Assembly: GCA_046350855.1 (NCBI GenBank)
Contig: JAXLZM010000003.1
Coordinates: 12,311 to 76,310, forward strand
Length of the DNA stretch: 64,000 nt
Direction of reading: 5' to 3'
DNA from: Candidatus Anderseniibacteriota bacterium
GTDB lineage: Bacteria; Patescibacteriota; JAUYIX01
Shown: one piece after another, positions 4,610 through 63,665 of the stretch
Numbering within the stretch: position 1 is the first letter of the stretch
Layout of the letters: every line of letters starts with the position of its first letter
Notes under the pieces: model-generated
Database searches by the model: none
What the model was told of the DNA's origin: nothing
Seen by the model: the letters and a program-made list of their open reading frames with translations, nothing else
Program-made: the position numbers and the translations under genes

Positions 4610-5779
4610 TTAGGCAAAAGCACCAAAGACACCGTCGTCCTGGGGTTGAAGTTCGGTTTGGCGCGGGGCCTTAATGACGCGTTCAAAGAGTTGCAAATAC
4701 TGCGGGATGACCGTACTCCAATCAAAGCGCGCTTTGACGTAGGCCCGGCCGTTGCGCCCAAACTGCGCGCGACGCTCGGGGTTTGCTAGGAGCTCACGGA
4801 CCTGTTGGGCAAGCTGGAGATGGTCACGCGGATCTTGGTAGAGCTGGCCCGAAAAACCCGAGATGACCGCCTCAGAGATACCGCCGACGTCGGGCGCAAC
4901 GGCCGGCAACTGACAGGCCAAAGCTTCGAGCAACACGATTCCGAGCGCCTCACTGCGGGCCGCGTGCACAAAAAGATCGGCGGCATTATAGAGTTCTGGC
5001 AAACGTTCGTTCGCAACCGTGCCCAAAAACTGTACTCGCGCTGCGACTCCGAGGGTCTGTGCTAAGTCTTTGTAGACTTTTTCTTTGGTGGTGCTGCCGC
5101 TGCCGACTAACAGTAGTTCGGCCTCCGGTAACTCTTGGAGGGCGCGCAAAAGGGTCGCGATGTTTTTGTGGGCGGCGAGCTTGCCATTGGCAAACAAAAC
5201 CTGCGGCTGGCGAACCCCAAGACGCTGACGGACCAAAGCTTTGTCATGGGGAGTGCGCTGAGTAAAACGCTCTGTATCAACACCCGGGTAAATCACCTGG
5301 ATCCGCTCGGGTTCGCTATACGTGGCGAGATGCGATTTGACGTAATTACTGACCGCCACGATCGCATCGGCTTGGGCCAGTAAAATGTGGCCGACCGCTT
5401 GCATGTAGCTGTTCACCAAAAAACGAGTGGTGGGACTATAGAGTGACCAGCCGTGCTGCACCACCACAAACTTGGCTTTAGTCTCACGCTTGAGCCAAGG
5501 TAAGGCGCGGGTCTCGGGGTAGCCGACACCTTGAAACACAACCAAGTCGTACTGACCGACGGTAATAAAATCACGTACCTCGCGGTAAATACTTGAGGCC
5601 GGCCGAACGATGCGCCAGTACTGCTGCTGCACCAACGCCTTATCCTGATCCTCACGCCAGGGCATGATCTCCGCTACATGGCCACGGGCCCGCAGGGCCC
5701 GGACCAGTTCGGTCTCAACCCTAATAATGCCGCTCACCAGGTGGCGAGAGTATCCGCTATGAATAAATGCAACGCGCAT
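4610..5779 (-). CDS. Glycosyltransferase family 1 (GT4-like)
   Basis: The C-terminal half has the GT1 EX7E-like region (LLLVGSG...LPELYNAADLFV...EALGIVLLEALACQLPAVA). Confidence 0.75.
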   Translation of the reverse strand: MRVAFIHSGYSRHLVSGIIRVETELVRALRARGHVAEIMPWREDQDKALVQQQYWRIVRPASSIYREVRDFITVGQYDLVVFQGVGYPETRALPWLKRETKAKFVVVQHGWSLYSPTTRFLVNSYMQAVGHILLAQADAIVAVSNYVKSHLATYSEPERIQVIYPGVDTERFTQRTPHDKALVRQRLGVRQPQVLFANGKLAAHKNIATLLRALQELPEAELLLVGSGSTTKEKVYKDLAQTLGVAARVQFLGTVANERLPELYNAADLFVHAARSEALGIVLLEALACQLPAVAPDVGGISEAVISGFSGQLYQDPRDHLQLAQQVRELLANPERRAQFGRNGRAYVKARFDWSTVIPQYLQLFERVIKAPRQTELQPQDDGVFGAFA

Positions 5780-5782
5780 TGG

Positions 5783-6367
5783 TTATGCGCTTTTTCTACT
5801 CCGCCTCCCGGGCTTACGCAAGACCATACTGGCAGCAAGGCCGGAGACACCCAAACTTGCGATCCCCGACAAGACCAAGACCTCGGCGCCCGTTGTAGGT
5901 GAGCTACCTGGTAGTGCGCTGCCTGAGGAGAGCGAGGTCGAACTTGCCGAGGTCACACTGGGCCGATTGAGAAAATCGTTAGGTGTGTTACCCGCTTGCA
6001 AGAGCTGATTGACCGGGGCCGGATTGACACTGACCGGAGTGTTGACGCTGTTTGTCTGGGGTTGCGAGCTCACAGGGGTACTGACCGGCGTCACGTTGGC
6101 GCTGGGGGTCTGCGTAGTGGGTGTGGTCGCTACCGGAGTGGTTGAGACCGCGTTACTACCGCTCCCACCCGAGGAGTTACTAACGATATCGACCAAGGAT
6201 TGTGTCTGAACCGCACCCGGGGTCGTTTGAGTAGCTACGTCGGCGAGCGAAGTACCATTTTGTTGGCCGCTGACAAAAAAGTAGGCCAAGGCAGCCCCGC
6301 CACCGACGGCAACGACCAGGATCAAAATCCAATACACGACCTTTTCTCGGGAAGTAATCTCTGCCAT
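5783..6367 (-). CDS. Thr/Ser/Pro-rich surface protein with N-terminal TM anchor and a C-terminal sorting-signal-like end (LPGSS, hydrophobic stretch, RKPGRRSRKSA)
   Basis: Low-complexity T/S/P/V repeats. The C-terminus has the tripartite architecture of a cell-wall sorting signal. Confidence 0.5.
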   Translation of the reverse strand: MAEITSREKVVYWILILVVAVGGGAALAYFFVSGQQNGTSLADVATQTTPGAVQTQSLVDIVSNSSGGSGSNAVSTTPVATTPTTQTPSANVTPVSTPVSSQPQTNSVNTPVSVNPAPVNQLLQAGNTPNDFLNRPSVTSASSTSLSSGSALPGSSPTTGAEVLVLSGIASLGVSGLAASMVLRKPGRRSRKSA

Positions 6368-6426
6368 AAGACCGGCCTAGTATACCATTGCGATAGGCCG
6401 CTAACTAGGGTACTATCCCGCCGCTC

Positions 6427-6502
6427 GGGTCGGTAGCTCAATCGGTAGAGCAGGGGCCTCTTAAGCCCAAGGTTGAGAGTTCGATCCTCTCCCGACCCAC
6501 CA
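6427..6502 (+). tRNA. tRNA-Lys (anticodon CTT), CCA encoded
   Basis: Acceptor GGGTCGG/CCGACCC, anticodon loop cTCTTAAg, T-arm GTTCGATCC. Confidence 0.85.
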
Positions 6503-6507
6503 GATGG

Positions 6508-8322
6508 ATGCGCTACACTTTGCGCATGTCTTTTGGCGTTGGCCGAACCACAAAAATCGGAGTCGCAAAACTCGGCACGTTACTCGCGATTGGAGCACTC
6601 TTGGTCACTCTGGGGAGTGCCGCCTTGGTACGTCCGCACGTAACATCGCCAGAGGTGGCGCAGCTACCCCGTCCGTACTTTAGTCAAAGTGAGTCGTGGT
6701 TCGGCCGGGGGAATCTTATTAACCTTGATACTGCACCGGATGCAACGGATACCAGCTCGAGCACTACTACGTCGGACGAACAACCCTTGGTTCCACCCGA
6801 ACAACTCTGGACCGTGGCTGGGACCAACACGGTCTCACTCAACTGGACACGCCAAGCGGGAGCAAGCGGCTATCACGTGCACTATCGACCGGCCAGCCAG
6901 GCCAGTGACCTGACGGCCGAGGTCGCCGCGCCCTTTTTTACCGTCCGCAATGCCAAACCCAACACCAGCTACGAATTTGCGGTGGCAAGTGTAGACGAGA
7001 AGGGCATTGAGAGTCCGTTTAGTGCCCGGATGGCGGTGACCCCGACCTCGTTGACCTCGACCACACGTATCGAGCGCGCCGACCTCACCGTGGGAGCGTG
7101 GCTCCCCCCCGGCTGGGAGAACAGCGACGTGCAAGCCTCCTTTGAGCGAGCAAGTGGTACGCTCAGTGTGGTCAATCCTTTTTGGTACAACTTTTCGAGT
7201 AGCGGGCAGCTCGAGGCCAAGGGTTCTGCCAAAAATCCGGAGGTGGTAGCCCGGGCGCACCAAGCCGGCATGCGCGTGATCGTGACGGTGACCAATAACT
7301 ACGATCCAGAGCGGGTCAGTGCGTTTTTAAAAAATTCTGAGTTGCAGGAGCGGTTCATCCAAGACGTCGCAACCGAGCTCGGGATTTATAACTACGATGG
7401 GATCGATCTTGATTTTGAAAACGTACACACGAGCGATAAAGAAGCCTTTACCGATTTTGTCTTGCGTCTGGCGGCGGCGGTCCACAAGCAGGGCAAAGTG
7501 ATCGAGCTGACCGCCCAGGCCAAAAAAAGTGATACGGATACTTGGGATGGACCGGGCGCACTCGACCTCGAGCGGTTGCGCGAGGAGATCGATCGTTTTA
7601 AGCCTATGCTGTATGACTTTGCGCGGCCGGATACCGAACCAGGCGCGCTGGCACCACTCGCTTGGATCCGCGAGGTGTTGGGGTACTGGAAGAGCAAAGT
7701 CCCGGCCGAAAAAATTCAGGCCGCCCTCCCCCTCTATGGCTACGATTGGTCCCTCAGTAGCGAGGATGACATTGGGATTCAGTATGTGGATGTGCAGCAC
7801 ATTAAAAGTAAGTACAAAGTGAGTGAGGCCCTGGATCCCGCCAGTGGTGAGGTCAAACTCTCCTACTCGGACGAGCACGGTCCACGCACGGTTTTTTACC
7901 AAAATGCCGCGAGTGTCCAACAAAAAGTCGCGACGGTGCGGGCGGCAGGTATCTCGGCCGTAACGTTTTGGCTCTTGGGTGGCGAGGATCCGCAGACGTT
8001 TGAGGCCTTACGCGCTGCAACCAGTAAAACGACGGTCAGCTTGCAAAAACCGCTTAACATTGGACTCAAGCTTAAAGGGTCTGAGCTGGCGGTCTCGGTT
8101 TCTAAGTTTCCGGAGATTGATCACGTGACGGTGCTCTACGGCGCAGCACCCGATGCGCTCAACAAAAAACTGGAAAAACAAACTACTAGCTTGATCACGC
8201 TACCCGCCTTGCAACCGGGCGAGACCCGTTACATCCAAGCCATCGCCTACGACAAAAAAGGCGCCGAGATAAAAAAGAGCGGAATCGCTTTTATCGATAG
8301 TAGCCAGCAAAAAAAGCTATAA
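6508..8322 (+). CDS. Secreted protein with signal peptide, fibronectin type III domain and GH18 (chitinase-like) glycoside hydrolase domain
   Basis: N-terminal hydrophobic signal, an FN3-like segment (VSLNWTRQAGASGYHVHYRP) and the GH18 catalytic motif YDGIDLDFE. The start could instead be the downstream ATG at 6526. Confidence 0.7.
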   Translation: MRYTLRMSFGVGRTTKIGVAKLGTLLAIGALLVTLGSAALVRPHVTSPEVAQLPRPYFSQSESWFGRGNLINLDTAPDATDTSSSTTTSDEQPLVPPEQLWTVAGTNTVSLNWTRQAGASGYHVHYRPASQASDLTAEVAAPFFTVRNAKPNTSYEFAVASVDEKGIESPFSARMAVTPTSLTSTTRIERADLTVGAWLPPGWENSDVQASFERASGTLSVVNPFWYNFSSSGQLEAKGSAKNPEVVARAHQAGMRVIVTVTNNYDPERVSAFLKNSELQERFIQDVATELGIYNYDGIDLDFENVHTSDKEAFTDFVLRLAAAVHKQGKVIELTAQAKKSDTDTWDGPGALDLERLREEIDRFKPMLYDFARPDTEPGALAPLAWIREVLGYWKSKVPAEKIQAALPLYGYDWSLSSEDDIGIQYVDVQHIKSKYKVSEALDPASGEVKLSYSDEHGPRTVFYQNAASVQQKVATVRAAGISAVTFWLLGGEDPQTFEALRAATSKTTVSLQKPLNIGLKLKGSELAVSVSKFPEIDHVTVLYGAAPDALNKKLEKQTTSLITLPALQPGETRYIQAIAYDKKGAEIKKSGIAFIDSSQQKKL

Positions 8323-17425: not shown

Positions 17426-18853
17426 TTACGGATAAGTACTCGCCAGTGTAACACGCCTCACTACCCGCCTCGTAAACCCGGTCGTAAAGGGAGTGGGTTC
17501 TCCCTGCGGAACACAAATGACCAAGCGATCCCGGGCCCGGGTCAACGCGACGTAAAAAATGTTGCGCTCTTCGCGCACTCGATCGTACCCGGCCAGTTGG
17601 TCTATCGCAGAGAGAGGTCCGCACGGACCTGCGGAGTATGCCTCTCCCGAGGCCCGTGCCGGAAAACCAAACCGATTTTGGGCGACGTTGAGAAGTATCA
17701 CTACCCGCGCCTCTAATCCTTTAAAGGCGTGGACCGTTAGTGCGCGGACTTTTGGGTAACGGATCCGCGCGCGCTTGAGTTGCGCAAGCGGCAGATGTGC
17801 GCGCGCCAGAAGTACGATCTCGTTTTGGGCAAAGCCTTTGGCCAGCAGTTCTGCCAATACGCGTAGGCAGAGCAGGTCCTCCCCGTAACGCGGATAGGTA
17901 ATGCACTCCGGCACCACACCCTCGCCCCGCGTCGGCAAAATCGGCAGGCCCTCGACTCGTTGCAAAAAACGATTGACCAGTGCGATGATCGTTGCACTCG
18001 AGCGGTAGTTAGTGCGCAAGACCAGTTGCTGCCAGAGCCGTGTGGTCCCCTCTCCGTATCCGTTAGGGACCGTTCCGGCAGAACCGCGCCAACCATACAG
18101 CGATTGGTTGGGGTCACCGACCCACGTTTGGGTGTCGGCCATCTTGCAATATGTGTCGATCAGCTGTAATTCTGCGGCGGCAGCATCTTGCGCTTCATCG
18201 ATCAAAACGTGCTGAGGCTGGCATGTCTTGAACGGCCCGTGTTGCTGCGCGGCCTGGATCAGGTGGGTAAAATCGGTCACCCCGTGGTGCTCGAGAACCG
18301 TTTGGTAGACCTGCATGAGGTGCACGACCAACCAGGCGAACGAATCTTGCTGCGCGATAGTCTTGAGTTTGTTACAAGCAGCCGTGAGCCCTACCTGGGT
18401 GAGCCGTTGGTGACTCTCCAACAGTTGCCGAACCAAAAAAGGGTGCGACCAGTTTTGTTGAACGCACAACTCACGCGCGTGACGCGTGGTCCGAGGTGCC
18501 GTCAGTATGCGACAAGCAATTTTCCAAAGTAATCGTCTGCGCTCTGCCTCTAGTATGAGCCGACCCGAGACGACATGAGAGCCCTGCAGTAAGCGGAGCG
18601 CCCAGGCATGAAACGTCCGCACGGCTACCGCTGGATAGCCGGCGTCTACCAAGCGACGCCGTAGTTCGTGGGCCGCTTTACGGGCAAAGGTCACGACCAG
18701 GATCTGGTGTGCGGCCGCGCGTCGAGCTTGTACGAGCCAAGCAATCCGCTGGATCAATACACTGGTTTTGCCGGAGCCGGCCGGCGCCACGATCGAGAGA
18801 CGCGCGGCCGCACTCGTAACGGCAGCTTGTTGCACTGAGTCGAGTCTCGGCAT
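17426..18853 (-). CDS. UvrD/Rep-family ATP-dependent DNA helicase, short form of 475 aa
   Basis: Walker A APAGSGKTSV near the N-terminus and UvrD-like helicase motifs (TFARKAAHELRRRL, DEAQD). Confidence 0.7.
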   Translation of the reverse strand: MPRLDSVQQAAVTSAAARLSIVAPAGSGKTSVLIQRIAWLVQARRAAAHQILVVTFARKAAHELRRRLVDAGYPAVAVRTFHAWALRLLQGSHVVSGRLILEAERRRLLWKIACRILTAPRTTRHARELCVQQNWSHPFLVRQLLESHQRLTQVGLTAACNKLKTIAQQDSFAWLVVHLMQVYQTVLEHHGVTDFTHLIQAAQQHGPFKTCQPQHVLIDEAQDAAAAELQLIDTYCKMADTQTWVGDPNQSLYGWRGSAGTVPNGYGEGTTRLWQQLVLRTNYRSSATIIALVNRFLQRVEGLPILPTRGEGVVPECITYPRYGEDLLCLRVLAELLAKGFAQNEIVLLARAHLPLAQLKRARIRYPKVRALTVHAFKGLEARVVILLNVAQNRFGFPARASGEAYSAGPCGPLSAIDQLAGYDRVREERNIFYVALTRARDRLVICVPQGEPTPFTTGFTRRVVRRVTLASTYP

Positions 18854-47634: not shown

Positions 47635-47647
47635 CAGTTTCTCCCTA

Positions 47648-47939
47648 TGGTGCCGAGGGCCAGGATCGAACTGGCGACGCCAGCCTCTTCCATACTTGGA
47701 CTATCTCATCATCCTTGCCTATTTGTTCAGACAAGGAGCTGGGCGCTTGTGTAGGAGTATTGTTGGGACTCACCTACTAGTCTCTACGCCTTCCGGTGGA
47801 ATTTAACCCGTACCGGCTTGGTTCGGGATTGGCAAACTTACGCTTGCTTTTCCCCGAGTTCACCCAGTTTTTAAAGATTCATTACTGAACCATGCCCCAA
47901 AGAGTCTAGGGCTGCGCTCTACCACTGAGCTACCTCGGC
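47648..47939 (-). tRNA. tRNA-Phe (anticodon GAA) interrupted in the anticodon loop, after U33, by a 217-nt group I intron; exons 47908..47939 and 47648..47690
   Basis: 5' exon GCCGAGGTAGCTCAGTGGTAGAGCGCAGCCCT, 3' exon GAAGAGGCTGGCGTCGCCAGTTCGATCCTGGCCCTCGGCACCA. The spliced product folds into a canonical cloverleaf with loop CUGAAGA. Confidence 0.8.
47691..47907 (-). mobile_element. Group I self-splicing intron (subgroup IC3-like, no ORF) in tRNA-Phe
   Basis: P1 pairs exon GCCCU with intron GGGGC, with a U.G wobble at the 5' splice site. P10 pairs intron UCUUU with 3' exon GAAGA. The R element GUAGAGACUAGUAGG and S element GAUGAGAUAGUCC (P7) resemble the Azoarcus and Anabaena tRNA introns. 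Omega-G comes before the 3' splice site. Confidence 0.8.
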
Positions 47940-47983: not shown

Positions 47984-48060
47984 TGGTGGGCACTGTAGGG
48001 ATCGAACCTACGACCTCGTCAGTGTAAATGACGCGCTCTAACCAGCTGAGCTAAGTGCCC
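47984..48060 (-). tRNA. tRNA-Val (anticodon TAC), CCA encoded
   Basis: The reverse complement gives GGGCACT-TAGCTCAGCTGGTTAGAGC, anticodon stem CGTCA/TGACG with loop TTTACAC, T-arm GTAGGTTCGATCCCTAC. Confidence 0.85.
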
Positions 48061-48719
48061 AAAGATGCTTTAGTTACACCCTCTATCCAACCAAGAATAG
48101 ACAATAATAGCCGAGTGTCACAGATAACGATATCGAAGGTACCATATGGTAACGAATCTCGCTTACCCTTGCTGTTGCGGTTGCGTTTTCGATATGTTTT
48201 GTAAAACTGTTTTAGCGGAATACCAGAAACTTTTGACCAGTAGTGTTCTGCGAACCGATGGTCAAGGTGACCATGGATATGAATATGTCCTCTGAACTTT
48301 TTTTCTGGAACAGCACAAATCTCTTTAAAAAACCGCATCATTATTTGAACACTTTTTGGATCTCCATTGGAGAACCCAACTAAACCGTGATTTGTCTTTC
48401 TGCCCTCTCCCCAATACAAACCAATGCCCAGAATCCACAGATCACGCCGCGAAATCCGCTTGATCGATGCTGCCGCTATACTAGTAGTAACCGCACGTTT
48501 TACCATTTCATGTCTGAGCCTCGTTTGACGCCTCGATTCAATAACCTCAATGCTTGTATGACGTGCTTTAAGCCTATTAACTTGTTTTGGAGTTAGAGAT
48601 ACGTCGCGGACCCAAAGACTTGCTGTACTTTTTGAAATAGCAAGGGCTCGCGTAATTTGTTTCAAGGAGTATCCCTTTGAGCGTAAAATTCTTGCCCTAC
48701 GTCGCTCGATAAGCTTCAT
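48051..48719 (-). CDS. Putative homing endonuclease-like protein (HTH plus single LAGLIDADG-like motif ILGIGLYWGEGRK), paralog of 14434..15120; last 10 nt overlap tRNA-Val(TAC), stop is TAG of the tRNA D-stem
   Basis: Paralogous to 14434..15120. AT-rich by eye. AT-rich promoter-like upstream region with TATTATGAT. Confidence 0.5.
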   Translation of the reverse strand: MKLIERRRARILRSKGYSLKQITRALAISKSTASLWVRDVSLTPKQVNRLKARHTSIEVIESRRQTRLRHEMVKRAVTTSIAAASIKRISRRDLWILGIGLYWGEGRKTNHGLVGFSNGDPKSVQIMMRFFKEICAVPEKKFRGHIHIHGHLDHRFAEHYWSKVSGIPLKQFYKTYRKRNRNSKGKRDSLPYGTFDIVICDTRLLLSILGWIEGVTKASLGT

Positions 48720-48756: not shown

Positions 48757-48790
48757 ATTTTTTAAATTAAAAGCGCGGGAGTACCGCGCT
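48757..48790 (-). terminator. Intrinsic terminator downstream of small ORF 48853..49122
   Basis: On the minus strand AGCGCGGUACUCCCGCGCU is followed by UUUUAAUUUAAAAAAU. Confidence 0.55.
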
Positions 48791-48804
48791 CTATACAGTA
48801 GTTA

Positions 48805-48837
48805 GGGAGAGGGAGGATGAACCACGGTTCATCCTCC
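48805..48837. repeat. SD-containing hairpin element, copy A (AGAGGGAGGAUGAACC-AC-GGUUCAUCCUCC)
   Basis: 12-bp perfect stem. Shares the AGAGGGAGGA prefix and the ...CCUCC closing arm with the elements at 63150..63186 and 63557..63589. Confidence 0.6.
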
Positions 48838-48852
48838 GGGAGAACTAGGGAG

Positions 48853-49122
48853 CTAGGAAGCGACGTCGCTCGCGAAGGTGGTCTCGGCCAGCACAGCCAA
48901 GCCCGCCAGACTACCCTGGTCGAGCATCTCGAAGTGCTTGCAGATCGGGCAACCGTGTGCACCGGCCGGGTGGATGAGGAGACGCTGCGTTTGGTGGTTG
49001 GTCTTGGGATTGTCGGTCGAGCCGTTGGGGCAGAAAGGTGAACGATCGCTGAACTGCCAACCGAACGAGTACGCAATGGGGAGTTTGCGGAGCTGATCCT
49101 CGGTCAGATTCTCAAATGCCAT
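48853..49122 (-). CDS. Hypothetical 89-aa Cys/His-containing protein (CPNG...HGCPICKH), own RBS and terminator, flanked by 16-bp perfect inverted repeats
   Basis: Strong SD (AAGGAG, 5 nt, ATG). Terminator at 48757..48790. Inverted repeat TACAGTAGTTAGGGAG at 48794..48809 and its reverse complement at 49152..49167. Confidence 0.5.
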   Translation of the reverse strand: MAFENLTEDQLRKLPIAYSFGWQFSDRSPFCPNGSTDNPKTNHQTQRLLIHPAGAHGCPICKHFEMLDQGSLAGLAVLAETTFASDVAS

Positions 49123-49287
49123 CCTTCTCCTTATGGGGCGTATCCGAAGCCCTCCCTAACTACTGTATGTGGTTCATACTGAACAAATCCCCTGAGGGGA
49201 CAAACAATGAGCTTATAGTAGTTGTGAGGTCGCGTCAAGCCTGGGCCTTTTTGGATTGGTCCGTCGGCTTGTATCTGAATATGTTCT

Positions 49288-49373
49288 TGGTGCGCGAGGG
49301 GGGATTCGAACCCCCAAGCCTTGCGGCACATGCACCTCAAGCATGCGTGTCTAGCCAGTTGCACCACTCGCGC
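49288..49373 (-). tRNA. tRNA-Leu (anticodon GAG), long variable arm, CCA encoded
   Basis: The reverse complement gives GCGCGAG-TG-GTGCAACTGGCTAGACAC, anticodon stem CATGC/GCATG with loop TTGAGGT, a long variable arm and T-arm GGGGGTTCGAATCCCCC. Confidence 0.8.
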
Positions 49374-50025
49374 AGTAACCAGCAGGGTACGGATCTTCCC
49401 AGAGTATTGCAAGCGCCTTCTGTTTTTTTCTTGCCAGATGAGGAGAGGCGCTATCTTGATAGAAAGCTGTCAGGATTTTGCGTGCCTCGTGTTTAGAAAA
49501 CTTGGCCTGATAGGCCCCCGAACCACTTGTAACATGGCCCTTGGCACCAATAGTTTGTTGTGTTGCTTTAACCAGCCACTTTGCAAATTGAGCACTAGCC
49601 GTTGCGAAAGCTACATAGAACATAAAACTGCTCCGCCAACGCGGGTCCCAATATGCATAGACAGTTCCATCACCGTCGAATAGGCCCCTTAAAAAGTCAG
49701 CAAAAAAGTTCGGTGGAATACTCAACTTACCTAGCGTTCTAGATTTTCTAGGAGTTAATCCAATCGAAAGTAGAAAACGATAAAAAGTAACATCTCCAAA
49801 CTGGAGCTGATAGCCATTGCTACGTCCTGTAAAACCACTTTTCTTTTTGCTTACCCGATTCTTAATCGCCAAACACTTTTTTAAGGTTTGGATAAGATCA
49901 AGATTATTAGATGTAAAAAATAGATGGCGACCGTCTGGAGAAAGACAACCATCGCTCGCCATAAGGCCAACGACATAGGCCATATTCGAGCTCCATTTAC
50001 AGTTTATCCGACCTAGTGGTCTCAT
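49351..50025 (-). CDS. LAGLIDADG homing endonuclease (two motifs: VVGLMASDGCL and LRGLFDGDGTV); last 23 nt overlap tRNA-Leu(GAG), stop is the TAG of the tRNA D-loop
   Basis: Classical double-motif LAGLIDADG. The C-terminal codons (ASGATG, stop) are read from the tRNA sequence GCGCGAGTGGTGCAACTGGCTAG. AT-rich by eye. Confidence 0.85.
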   Translation of the reverse strand: MRPLGRINCKWSSNMAYVVGLMASDGCLSPDGRHLFFTSNNLDLIQTLKKCLAIKNRVSKKKSGFTGRSNGYQLQFGDVTFYRFLLSIGLTPRKSRTLGKLSIPPNFFADFLRGLFDGDGTVYAYWDPRWRSSFMFYVAFATASAQFAKWLVKATQQTIGAKGHVTSGSGAYQAKFSKHEARKILTAFYQDSASPHLARKKQKALAILWEDPYPAGYCASGATG

Positions 50026-63149: not shown

Positions 63150-63186
63150 AGGAGAGAGGGAGGAACGAAGTATGCTTCGTTCCTCC
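63150..63186. repeat. SD-containing hairpin element, copy B (GAGAGGGAGGAACGAAG-UAUG-CUUCGUUCCUCC)
   Basis: 12-bp perfect stem, with an AUG in the loop on the plus strand. Confidence 0.6.
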
Positions 63187-63556
63187 AATACCCATGAGGG
63201 CGCCTAACGGCGACAAGTCTCATGAATCGTAGAAGTGCGCATTGGTCCGGCACTGAGTGTCCTGTCTACTCGACAAGGCCAGCCCTTACCGTCAGGTCGA
63301 GCTACCCATTGCTCTTCCCGCTACTTCCGACACACGGCTGGATTTGTCCTATCCACTTGGGTGATGGAATCGGTCTCCAGACGCTCTTTGTTTGCCTGTT
63401 TTGCTTGTCCGCCTGACCATCACTAACGGTCTTAAGCGGCAGGTCAAACAGCCGAGGCATGGATGGATGCGCGCCATCCGCCCGACACTTTGTAATGAAC
63501 AAGAGCTTGTTGCCCTTCTTGAGAGATTCTCTGTTAGGGCGCGAGAGAATCGCTCG

Positions 63557-63589
63557 AGAAGAGGGAGGAACGAGCGATATCGTTCCTCC
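63557..63589. repeat. SD-containing hairpin element, copy C (GAAGAGGGAGGAACGA-GCGAUA-UCGUUCCUCC)
   Basis: 10-bp perfect stem with the same arms as copy B. Confidence 0.6.
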
Positions 63590-63665
63590 GTTGTTCGTAT
63601 GTCCAACGTCGACCGAAGACCCAGATTTCCCTAACGACAACCGCCTGCGCACGGTCGCCAGATAC

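Follow-up and report, generated by a model that had tools for sequence, protein, structure and literature searches.

Comparative evidence for probable end-to-end pairing of a small zinc-ribbon mRNA in a tRNA cluster of Andersenbacteria

Perfect inverted repeats around a small open reading frame can be read as the ends of a DNA element or as the two strands of an RNA helix, and a locus on contig JAXLZM010000003.1 of a Candidatus Anderseniibacteriota bacterium (GCA_046350855.1) raises the question of which applies. In the 64,000-nucleotide stretch of this contig that was analysed, here called the window, the sequence TACAGTAGTTAGGGAG at 48794-48809 recurs as its exact reverse complement at 49152-49167, on either side of a gene for an 89-aa Cys/His protein. 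The arms lie where the initial annotation had placed them, but the repeat, given there as 16 bp, is perfect over 17 nt (48793-48809 and 49152-49168) and extends to 19 bp if one G.U pair is admitted; the arms are 342 nt apart in a unit of 376 bp. No other perfect non-local inverted repeat of the window is as long. When perfect inverted repeats within 30–1000 nt were counted in dinucleotide-preserving shuffles of the window (n = 60), none of the 60 contained one of 16 nt or more, and 15-mers occurred at a mean of 0.03 per shuffle. The inverted repeat is real and non-random, standing far above chance. Other long-range perfect inverted repeats of at least 13 nt were sought in the window, L026 and L030, and the scan found only this locus and two repeats within coding sequence, so the feature is specific to this gene and not a habit of the whole genome.

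The gene order is tRNA-Leu(GAG), the small zinc-ribbon gene, tRNA-Val(UAC), tRNA-Phe and tRNA-Gly, and the features of the locus are listed in Table 1. The 89-aa ORF and its Shine-Dalgarno sequence are both present as first described. A terminator had also been placed within the repeat; the T-tract terminator-like hairpin (minus strand; stem 48773-48789, T run 48760-48772) instead follows directly on the 3' arm, beyond the inverted repeat, and the structure inside is a 12-bp hairpin lacking a U tract, which we refer to as hairpin H. The TTGACG/TATAAG pair upstream of the 5' arm is missing from our promoter scan because its spacer is 15 nt and the scan takes spacers of 16–18 nt only; a TTGAC(T/G)...TA pair of boxes is also seen by eye ahead of the 5' arm in relatives, every genome having promoter-like boxes on that side of the arm. 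The adjoining 222-aa gene (48051-48719), previously called an endonuclease gene, has only helix-turn-helix matches (Pfam, PHROGs), and the clear LAGLIDADG gene (49351-50025) lies beyond tRNA-Leu from the cassette. The unit has a G+C content of about 60%, like the host, against 40% for the foreign-looking endonuclease-type genes that flank it.

Table 1. Positions of features at the zinc-ribbon locus, in window coordinates.
Feature	Position	Strand	Remarks
5' arm of long-range helix, 5' UTR	49150..49168	-	RNA AUACAGUAGUUAGGGAG(GG); from sequence and RNAalifold
5' arm, 17-nt core	49152-49168	-	Ends 29 nt before AUG
3' arm of long-range helix, 3' UTR	48793..48811	-	RNA (CU)CUCCCUAACUACUGUAU; from sequence and RNAalifold
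3' arm, 17-nt core	48793-48809	-	
Shine-Dalgarno sequence AAGGAGAAGG	49123-49132	-	Immediately ahead of AUG; outside the long-range helix
ORF, 89 aa, Cys/His	48853..49122	-	
Hairpin H	48812..48837	-	12-bp perfect stem GGAGGAUGAACC / GGUUCAUCCUCC, 2-nt loop, no U tract
Promoter-like TTGACG, 15 nt, TATAAG	49212..49238	-	About 43 nt upstream of the 5' arm; read by eye
Intrinsic-terminator-like hairpin GCGCGG-UACUC-CCGCGC, then UUUUAAUUU	48760..48792	-	From sequence and fold prediction
Small leader hairpin GUCCCCUCAGGGGAU	49187..49201	-	Predicted, window only; between promoter-like site and 5' arm

Relatives were retrieved through the neighbouring uracil-DNA glycosylase (UDG) gene. A homologous small zinc-ribbon ORF is found at the same location in eight related assemblies representing about five or six lineages, as a small C...C-x2-C ORF between tRNA-Leu(GAG) and tRNA-Val(UAC), downstream of UDG (syntenic carriers are L026/27/28/31, L029, L030, L060, L062, L064/65, L066 and L067). 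Scanning metagenomes with UDG gave one close relative, the other matches being 40–60% identical and without the tRNA synteny. In L063 the tRNA-Leu and tRNA-Val genes are separated by 60 nt with no ORF, and the spacer has neither a footprint nor flank similarity.

The layout had been likened to a MITE or minimal mobile cassette, in which the repeats would be the ends of a non-autonomous element with a passenger gene; we follow published definitions of MITEs and mobile insertion cassettes (PMC5172404, PMC6382973, PMC5444012). The resemblance lies in the short terminal inverted repeats (17 bp and perfect) and the small size of the unit that they enclose and, for mobile insertion cassettes, in the passenger gene, and is strengthened by the mobile-looking endonuclease genes nearby and by the L063 arrangement. 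With the repeat shortened to 14 nt, TA and then CAGT... flank each end, which we take to be reminiscent of IS630/Tc1-type ends. However, no target-site duplication is seen: the flanks (...GCGCTCT and GTGGTTC...) share no direct repeat, the one candidate, a palindromic TA, is inseparable from the repeat itself, and the TA-CAG start is absent from the arms of other lineages. Allowing up to three mismatches, no further arm copies occur in the window besides the two arms. Nor were related copies of the 16-mer found among 185,579 species-representative genomes (a set that does not include the other ~1 Mb of the source genome), where 21 single chance matches fall in unrelated taxa, or in IMG/VR, with four single chance matches. 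The position (UDG, tRNA-Leu(GAG), ORF, tRNA-Val(UAC)) is the same in all eight ORF-bearing relatives, whose arms have diverged and co-evolve, and the arms sit inside the predicted transcription unit, one in the interval between promoter and Shine-Dalgarno and the other between hairpin and terminator. Unlike a MITE, the unit is single-copy in the sequence searched, fixed in place in diverged genomes and host-like in composition, with arms that covary and are not family-specific, and we reject the mobile-element reading as close to refuted, leaving it scarcely any probability. Among the observations that the initial annotation had named as telling against a cassette, the repeat is unique and has no target-site duplication, while the ORF, contrary to the third, is conserved in relatives.

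The helix was compared across nine sequences, which represent about five or six lineages of a single candidate-phylum clade. In all eight ORF-bearing relatives the best complement between the 5' UTR and the 3' UTR occurs at the homologous place. The arms are perfect over 17 nt in the window, L060, L030, L066 and L067, match at 16 of 17 positions in L029 and 15 of 17 in L026, and at 17 of 20 plus one U.G in L062/L064. In an ungapped complement test between the UTRs, the observed complement length was attained by none of 200 shuffles in seven genomes and by 1–4 of 200 in L062/L064. This test was used in place of RNAduplex energies over whole UTRs (z from -0.6 to -3.5), which are uninformative because long, loop-rich duplexes dominate them. 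The arm sequences diverge between lineages, and 12 of the 17 helix pairs are altered on both sides; one such change, from G:C to A:U, separates L066 from L030/L067. Pairing is retained in 89.5% of cells, against 71% when shuffled and 42–50% when the partner is slid by 1–3 columns, and the covariation score is 0.547 against values of 0.18 or less. RNAalifold recovers the same two helices with no structure supplied and adds a G.U pair (five of nine sequences) and a G-C pair (nine of nine); contributed by two extra bases of the 3' arm, these pairs extend the long-range helix right up to hairpin H. Partition-function calculations give the helix a probability of 0.85–0.99 in all seven lineages tested.

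On these observations the repeat arms are best read as an RNA duplex, with one arm supplying each strand, and not as the boundaries of a DNA element. The initial annotation had offered an mRNA with paired 5' and 3' ends as its alternative, and the conserved position and compensatory changes support that proposal. Nonetheless, compensatory change would keep an inverted repeat in DNA equally well, and the core helix carries little RNA-specific signal because its non-Watson–Crick cells are mostly C.C or C.A and not G.U. Perfect 17-nt arms in three separate lineages also exceed what simple thermodynamic stability needs.

A second DNA-level explanation is that a recombinase flips the 342-bp segment and turns the ORF away from its promoter, giving phase variation. 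Perfect 17-bp inverted repeats around a complete ORF with a promoter-like site outside are the layout sought by inverton finders (PMC11892184; bioRxiv 10.1101/2023.03.11.532203), and the identical arms kept in several lineages would fit constraint at the DNA level. Against this, the ORF points the same way with respect to UDG and the tRNAs in 13 of 13 assemblies from about six populations, a test that is weak because assemblies report the majority state. No conserved recombinase lies beside the locus among Pfam-annotated neighbours (±10 kb in L026 and L030, shorter flanks elsewhere), and the sole recombinase seen is in L061, a genome without the cassette. The arm sequences vary between lineages and so provide no common recombinase site, there are 2–3 arm mismatches in L026 and L062/64, and the helix runs through a conserved G.U pair up to the RNA hairpin. 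We consider inversion very unlikely.

Placement of both arms on one transcript is suggested by the promoter-like boxes, by the 27–44 nt that separate the 5' arm from the AUG, and by the downstream terminator or tRNA-Val. A promoter and a Shine-Dalgarno leader could not both fit into that distance, and expression of the ORF would therefore require the 5' arm to be transcribed. Likewise deduced from sequence are the promoter, the 3' end and continued transcription through hairpin H as far as the 3' arm. The interpretation that we favour, with fair assurance, is that this is a native gene and that the two ends of its mRNA pair as a long-range helix, with a probable role in protecting the ends or in processing an mRNA that lies among tRNAs. 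The small zinc-ribbon gene would be native and vertically inherited, residing in a tRNA cluster with its own promoter-like site, and 17 nt of its 5' UTR, lying 27–44 nt before the start codon, would pair with 17 nt of its 3' UTR. The long-range helix and the hairpin may then stack as a three-way junction, with the whole coding region closed off as a loop. Such a closed form could both protect and define the ends of the short mRNA, blocking 3'-to-5' exonucleases that start from the terminator or from an RNase P cut at tRNA-Val and hiding the 5' region from RNases that depend on the 5' end; end protection of this kind would set the lifetime of the mRNA. By analogy, the proposed protective role would be of the same type as in the hbs mRNA.

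Hairpin H keeps its position in relatives, and its stem covaries: it has 7–12 bp across lineages, and 7 of its 12 pairs are altered on both sides among them. Coaxial stacking of hairpin H on the long-range helix is feasible. A search of Rfam over the element returned no known RNA family. The window contains exactly three copies of the sequence AGAGGGAGGA, at 48808, 63155 and 63560, each running into a perfect GGAGGA... hairpin; the copy of this sequence-and-hairpin element at 48808 falls within the segment, as had been noted. Separately, one strand of hairpin H recurs in the window as a stretch of 12 nt that adjoins the 5' arm on its 5' side (49169-49180). Pairing of this stretch would cross the long-range helix in a pseudoknot-like manner, and the segment is absent from relatives.

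A different possibility is that the helix acts as a translational lock of the hok/aapA/icaR type, the full-length mRNA being inert and becoming active after 3' trimming or being translated only co-transcriptionally. The small ORF, the 5'–3' long-distance interaction and the 3' structures recall aapA3 and hok (PMC6733600) and icaR (PMC3868564), and CUCCC and CCUCC motifs resembling anti-Shine-Dalgarno sequences are abundant in the 3' UTR. However, the 5' arm stops 27–44 nt short of the start codon and does not overlap the Shine-Dalgarno sequence, which lies at least 15 nt outside the helix, and the predicted accessibility of the Shine-Dalgarno sequence and AUG does not change in any of the seven lineages tested when the 3' arm is left out. 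The protein of 77–93 aa is moreover a zinc ribbon with no long hydrophobic segment, as read from the sequence, unlike type I toxins. A lock of this kind therefore seems improbable, if slightly less so than inversion. A pairing between the Shine-Dalgarno sequence and the segment from stop codon to hairpin (GGAGAA/UUCUCC in the window) was also considered and set aside for lack of conservation; L029, where stop codon and hairpin are only 6 nt apart, has no counterpart.

The same helix might instead be a processing stalk. The flanks of 16S and 23S rRNA pair into stems that RNase III cuts, and if the zinc-ribbon gene were co-transcribed with the flanking tRNAs, the 17–19-bp duplex together with hairpin H would form a substrate for a double-strand-specific RNase of the RNase III type, and cleavage there would release the mRNA from the precursor of the tRNAs in a similar way. 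In seven of the nine sequences no terminator lies between the 3' arm and tRNA-Val, the spacers being 22–48 nt, and the arms bracket a whole functional unit, as in rRNA processing stems. The near-constant length of the helix, with a perfect 17 bp in five sequences, agrees more closely with an A-form duplex being recognised than with stability alone, and the 5'/3'-UTR duplex of icaR is a substrate of RNase III (PMC3868564). Weighing on the other side, the gene carries a promoter-like site of its own beyond tRNA-Leu. The window and L029 also have a T-tract terminator behind the 3' arm, which means that co-transcription with tRNA-Val does not apply throughout, and 17–19 bp is near the lower bound for RNase III unless the stacked hairpin is counted. 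We regard the stalk as a possibility worth holding, at roughly one chance in a handful. Marginally less probable is a fuller version in which an rRNA-style stalk would mature the zinc-ribbon mRNA from the tRNA-cluster precursor, possibly with the zinc-ribbon protein itself binding the conserved inner part of the junction (UUAGGGAG/CUCCCUAA and the hairpin) in feedback on its own mRNA.

The product itself is, from its sequence, a fast-evolving, small zinc-ribbon-type protein. Alignment of the homologues (77–93 aa, with a C...C-x2-C zinc-ribbon pattern) shows that C31, C58 and C61 of the 89-aa protein are invariant, and substitutions between the ORFs of close relatives are in excess at third codon positions. 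The family has so far been found only in Andersenbacteria-like genomes. A single-sequence protein search and an exhaustive HMMER search (1.84 billion representatives) recovered only the query itself and three spurious translations of tandem repeats; homologues were reached first by synteny and then by profile search, the ORF evolving too fast for a single-sequence search to find them. Pfam, NCBIfam, PHROGs, a PDB sequence search, AlphaFold2 (pLDDT 63) and Foldseek gave at most a generic, weak zinc-ribbon resemblance. A type I toxin-antitoxin module was also considered; as read from the sequence, the proteins have the zinc-ribbon pattern and do not look like small hydrophobic membrane toxins. 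Our promoter scan, with its 16–18-nt spacers, listed no antisense promoters in 48760-49240.

Three groups of characterised mRNAs offer comparisons for the end-paired mRNA that we favour. In the hbs mRNA of B. subtilis, a 14-bp pairing of the 5' and 3' UTRs modulates RNase access (Braun, Durand & Condon 2017, PMC5737220). Both are short mRNAs for a small protein, with UTR pairing of about 14–17 bp that does not hide the Shine-Dalgarno sequence, but the two share no sequence or gene homology, and the helix here, known from sequence alone, is 17–19 bp, mostly perfect, and adjoins a conserved 3' hairpin in a tRNA cluster. In the icaR mRNA of S. aureus, initiation is blocked because the Shine-Dalgarno region itself is engaged by the 3' UTR (Ruiz de los Mozos et al. 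2013, PMC3868564). The pyrimidine-rich, UCCCC-like motif in the 3' UTR and a duplex that could be an RNase III substrate are common to both, whereas here the Shine-Dalgarno sequence stands clear of the helix and its predicted accessibility is unchanged. In hok (fbi/tac) and in aapA1/aapA3 of H. pylori, 5'–3' pairing sequesters the Shine-Dalgarno sequence until 3' trimming undoes it, in systems where a hydrophobic toxin peptide is accompanied by an antisense RNA antitoxin (PMC6733600). A small ORF, a full-length mRNA closed end to end and a fold that covaries across loci are shared with these; Shine-Dalgarno sequestration, relief by 3' trimming, an antisense antitoxin and a hydrophobic toxin are not seen here. 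Like rRNA processing stems, the helix places distant complements around a functional RNA in a polycistronic RNA-gene cluster as a near-perfect duplex, but the bracketed unit is a protein-coding mRNA of ~340 nt, cleavage is hypothetical, and a terminator follows the 3' arm in two lineages. Complementarity between the UTRs is maintained, and the helix would on this ground join the mechanistic class of icaR, hbs and hok/aapA, which is not a homologous family.

To our knowledge, base pairing of an mRNA's 5' UTR with its own 3' UTR has been put to use in only a few known bacterial cases (icaR, hbs and the hok/aapA-type toxins), nearly all established experimentally and in model organisms. The helix described here, of the same class, is backed by comparative evidence alone and is exceptionally clean: it is 17 bp long and mostly perfect, with most pairs compensated. 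Its setting is an uncultivated lineage of the Candidate Phyla Radiation, the Andersenbacteria, where a lineage-specific small zinc-ribbon gene lies amid tRNA genes. For annotation, the locus is a caution that perfect inverted repeats flanking a small ORF may be RNA structure and not transposable or invertible DNA. Should the stalk reading be true, this would be an mRNA matured in the manner of ribosomal RNA. The locus also provides a concrete construct for questions of mRNA stabilisation and processing in organisms with reduced RNA-decay machinery.

The 16-mer TACAGTAGTTAGGGAG at 48794-48809 recurs as its exact reverse complement at 49152-49167, as the initial annotation claimed, although the perfect repeat is in fact 17 nt long (48793-48809 / 49152-49168), with 342 nt separating its arms. 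It is the longest among the perfect non-local inverted repeats of the 64-kb window, and since 60 dinucleotide-preserving window shuffles never gave a perfect inverted repeat of at least 16 nt within 30-1000 nt, the repeat is real and beyond chance. Two other perfect GC-rich inverted repeats, each of 15 nt, are present in the window, one inside a long ORF (4745-4759 / 4892-4906, arms 132 nt apart) and one at 18709-18723 / 18799-18813 (75 nt apart); 15-mer inverted repeats occur in shuffles at a mean of 0.03 per window.

The arms, named here in the sense of the ORF, enclose the expected 89-aa reading frame with a strong Shine-Dalgarno sequence, followed by a hairpin (H) just before the 3' arm; the T-tract terminator, previously placed within the unit, falls outside it. 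The G+C content of the unit (~60%) is similar to that of the surrounding genome (55-58%), and that of the flanking minus-strand genes 48051-48719 and 49351-50025 is ~40%. The 12 nt of RNA just 5' of the 5' arm (AGUAUGAACCAC, 49169-49180) nearly repeat the 5' strand of H (48824-48835) and could compete for its 3' strand, which would make a pseudoknot-like crossing with the long-range helix; this near-repeat is found in the window only and is absent from relatives.

Features of the repeat-bounded unit and of the nearby, apparently split tRNA gene, in ORF sense
Feature	Position	Strand	Remark
tRNA-Leu(GAG)	49373..49288	-	upstream end of layout
Promoter-like TTGACG-15 nt-TATAAG	49238..49212	-	
Short leader		-	between promoter-like site and 5' arm
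5' arm	49168..49152	-	followed by 29 nt including Shine-Dalgarno sequence, then ORF
Shine-Dalgarno AAGGAGAAGG		-	immediately upstream of ATG
ORF, 89 aa	48853-49122	-	15 nt to hairpin H
Hairpin H, perfect 12 bp	48837..48812	-	followed by CU, then 3' arm
3' arm	48809..48793	-	
GC-rich hairpin, then UUUUAAUUU (T-tract terminator)	48792..48760	-	outside repeat-bounded unit
tRNA-Phe(GAA) exon 1	47938..47907	-	
Putative group I intron	about 47906..47690	-	matches Rfam RF00028 at 49.1 bits, slightly below gathering score of 50
tRNA-Phe(GAA) exon 2	47689..47647	-	

The 89-aa protein has a single database record, from a Candidatus Andersenbacteria MAG and annotated as hypothetical, and because neither word-indexed nor exhaustive HMMER searches returned real relatives, we sought these through the neighbouring uracil-DNA glycosylase (UDG) and fetched the loci of UDG relatives 70-89% identical to it (related assemblies, with handles beginning with L). 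The order CBS protein - AP endonuclease - UDG - tRNA-Leu(GAG) ... tRNA-Val(UAC) - tRNA-Phe - tRNA-Gly(CCC) is conserved, and L026/27/28/31, L029, L030, L060 and L062 have an ORF of 77-93 aa between tRNA-Leu and tRNA-Val, on the strand of the tRNAs. Their products can be aligned with the window protein (LRKLPI..GW and HP.G..GCP.C), with C31, C58 and C61 invariant, and a profile search built from them added three members whose loci (L064/65, L066, L067) have an identical layout. Substitutions between close relatives fall mostly at third codon positions (15/10/36 over positions 1/2/3 for L030 and L066), and judged by this pattern the small ORF is under coding constraint. Apart from a weak similarity to zinc ribbons, the family has no assignment in Pfam, NCBIfam or PDB, and the AlphaFold2 model of the protein is of low confidence.

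Three further loci differ in arrangement. In L063 (4391-4610; UDG 71% identical) tRNA-Leu(GAG) and tRNA-Val(UAC) are 60 nt apart and the small ORF and repeat are absent, reflecting either gene loss or an ancestral empty state. L059 (5790-7200) has ~1.4 kb after tRNA-Leu(GAG) with no convincing ORF, no detected tRNA-Val, and internal repeats (CCTGTGTGAGTAACAGCCGCC and TTCCGAATGAGTACGGAAC, twice each), a region that may represent either a structured RNA or decayed sequence. In L061 a minus-strand 489-aa ORF (5688-7157), similar by eye to large serine recombinases, lies directly against tRNA-Leu(GAG), with a slight overlap, where the contig ends; this suggests an element integrated at this tRNA gene; the small ORF was not seen within the sequence at hand.

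[quoted passage not shown] For seven genomes none of 200 shuffles gave a complement as long as the observed one; for L062/64, 1-4 of 200 did. Only the inner GGGAG/CUCCC end is common to the lineages; the outer 10-12 positions differ in sequence and are still complementary, and within the helix exactly one double substitution, G:C to A:T, separates L066 from the closely related L030 and L067.

Repeat arms in the ORF-bearing lineages
Source	Arm(s)	Complementarity
Window	ATACAGTAGTTAGGGAG	perfect 17 nt
L060	AGCATCTCTTTAGGGAG	perfect 17 nt
L030, L067	AAACATCGTTTGGGGAG	perfect 17 nt
L066	AAACATCATTTGGGGAG	perfect 17 nt
L029	5' TTTATCCCTTTTGGGAG / 3' CTCCCAAAACGGATAAA	16/17
L026	5' ATTAAATCCCTCTAGGA / 3' TCCTACAGCGATTTAAT	15/17
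L062/64	5' GAACAGCATTTAAGCGGGGT / 3' ACCCCACTTAAGTACTGTTC	17/20, plus one U.G

In a MAFFT alignment of nine whole units, with the two helices of the window as reference structure, pairing is seen in 89.5% of cells, compared with 71% after column shuffling and 42-50% with the partner displaced by 1-3 columns; these counts are conservative, as the 3' end of L026 is partly misaligned. Both sides have changed in 12 of the 17 pairs of the long-range helix and in 7 of the 12 of the hairpin, and the covariation score is 0.547 (slid controls, at most 0.18). RNAalifold, supplied with the alignment and no structure, recovers both the long-range helix and the hairpin and lengthens the former by a G.U pair (5/9 sequences; G-C in two) and an invariant G-C pair, so that the base of H meets the 3' arm directly with zero unpaired nucleotides. 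When each full unit is folded by partition function, the predicted probability of the long-range helix is 0.85-0.99. The compensatory changes and the recovered helix support what the initial annotation had offered as its alternative, an mRNA whose 5' and 3' ends pair.

Its first reading, a MITE or minimal mobile cassette, fared poorly. The flanks, GCGCTCT and GTGGTTC, contain no target-site duplication, and a 'TA' there is readable only after shortening the repeat and is missing in other lineages. No further copy of the 16-mer was found in the window with up to 3 mismatches allowed, and 185,579 species-representative genomes plus IMG/VR, a collection without the source genome, gave only single matches in unrelated taxa. 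The defining features of a MITE or mobile insertion cassette (PMC5172404, PMC6382973, PMC5444012) thus fail, because the unit keeps to one syntenic position, its composition resembles that of the host, and its repeats evolve by compensation rather than as a family signature. An invertible DNA switch flanked by the repeats is harder to exclude, since compensatory change maintains DNA repeats too, but we regard it as very improbable: the orientation is the same in 13 of 13 assemblies, no conserved recombinase is nearby, the arms share no common site and have 2-3 mismatches in two lineages, and the helix continues through a G.U pair into an RNA hairpin.

What looks foreign at the locus is the pair of genes 48051-48719 and 49351-50025, not the small cassette. 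Each runs into the 5' end of the tRNA gene that comes next (tRNA-Val and tRNA-Leu, respectively). Of the two, 49351-50025 encodes a LAGLIDADG_3 protein; the endonuclease neighbour noted earlier, 48051-48719, has only an N-terminal helix-turn-helix match and, by eye, a LAGLIDADG-like 'GLYWGEG' motif; the two proteins have no detectable similarity. L030, L060 and L063 have a LAGLIDADG gene between UDG and tRNA-Leu. The tRNA-Phe(GAA) gene (47647-47938, minus strand) is apparently split between U33 and G34 by a group I intron and is missed by ARAGORN; relatives have an unbroken tRNA-Phe at the equivalent place. Elsewhere in the window are two more H-type hairpins (GGAGGAACGA.../...TCGTTCCTCC; 63155-63190 and 63560-63590) with the same AGAGGGAGGA flank, a 10-mer with three exact copies in 64 kb compared with ~0.1 expected; the 370 nt between these hairpins contain no convincing ORF and no Rfam match.

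TTGAC(T/G)...TA boxes can be read 14-37 nt upstream of the 5' arm in each genome, and the interval between that arm and the AUG is too short for a promoter plus a Shine-Dalgarno leader. Both arms are thus predicted to lie inside the transcription unit, and the transcript should fold with paired UTRs: a 17-19-bp duplex stacked on H would close the ORF into a loop. The Shine-Dalgarno sequence lies outside the helix, and in-silico removal of the 3' arm leaves its accessibility and that of the AUG unchanged in all lineages. In seven of nine sequences tRNA-Val begins only 22-48 nt past the 3' arm with no terminator; the window and L029 have a terminator instead. We favour the interpretation that the closed junction would keep exonucleases and 5'-end-dependent RNases off this short mRNA and define its ends, which would matter especially where tRNA processing makes the mRNA 3' end. 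In the main variant of this interpretation, the near-perfect duplex of constant length would be the cleavage site of a double-strand-specific RNase that excises the mRNA from a tRNA-cluster precursor. The duplex would then act as the processing stems of rRNA do.

[quoted passage not shown] With its function here judged by analogy, the helix belongs to a small mechanistic class, bacterial mRNAs with functional 5'UTR-3'UTR pairing, to whose known members it has no homology and from which it differs in its uncovered ribosome-binding site, adjoining conserved 3' hairpin, usually perfect 17 bp, and location among clustered tRNA genes in a Candidate Phyla Radiation lineage. The repeat is specific to the small-ORF gene, since ~100 kb (the window, L026 and L030) contained no comparable repeat at other genes. 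Rather than the suspected mobile element, and with no new principle, the unit provides a clean, covariation-backed and testable case of such pairing from an unexplored group.
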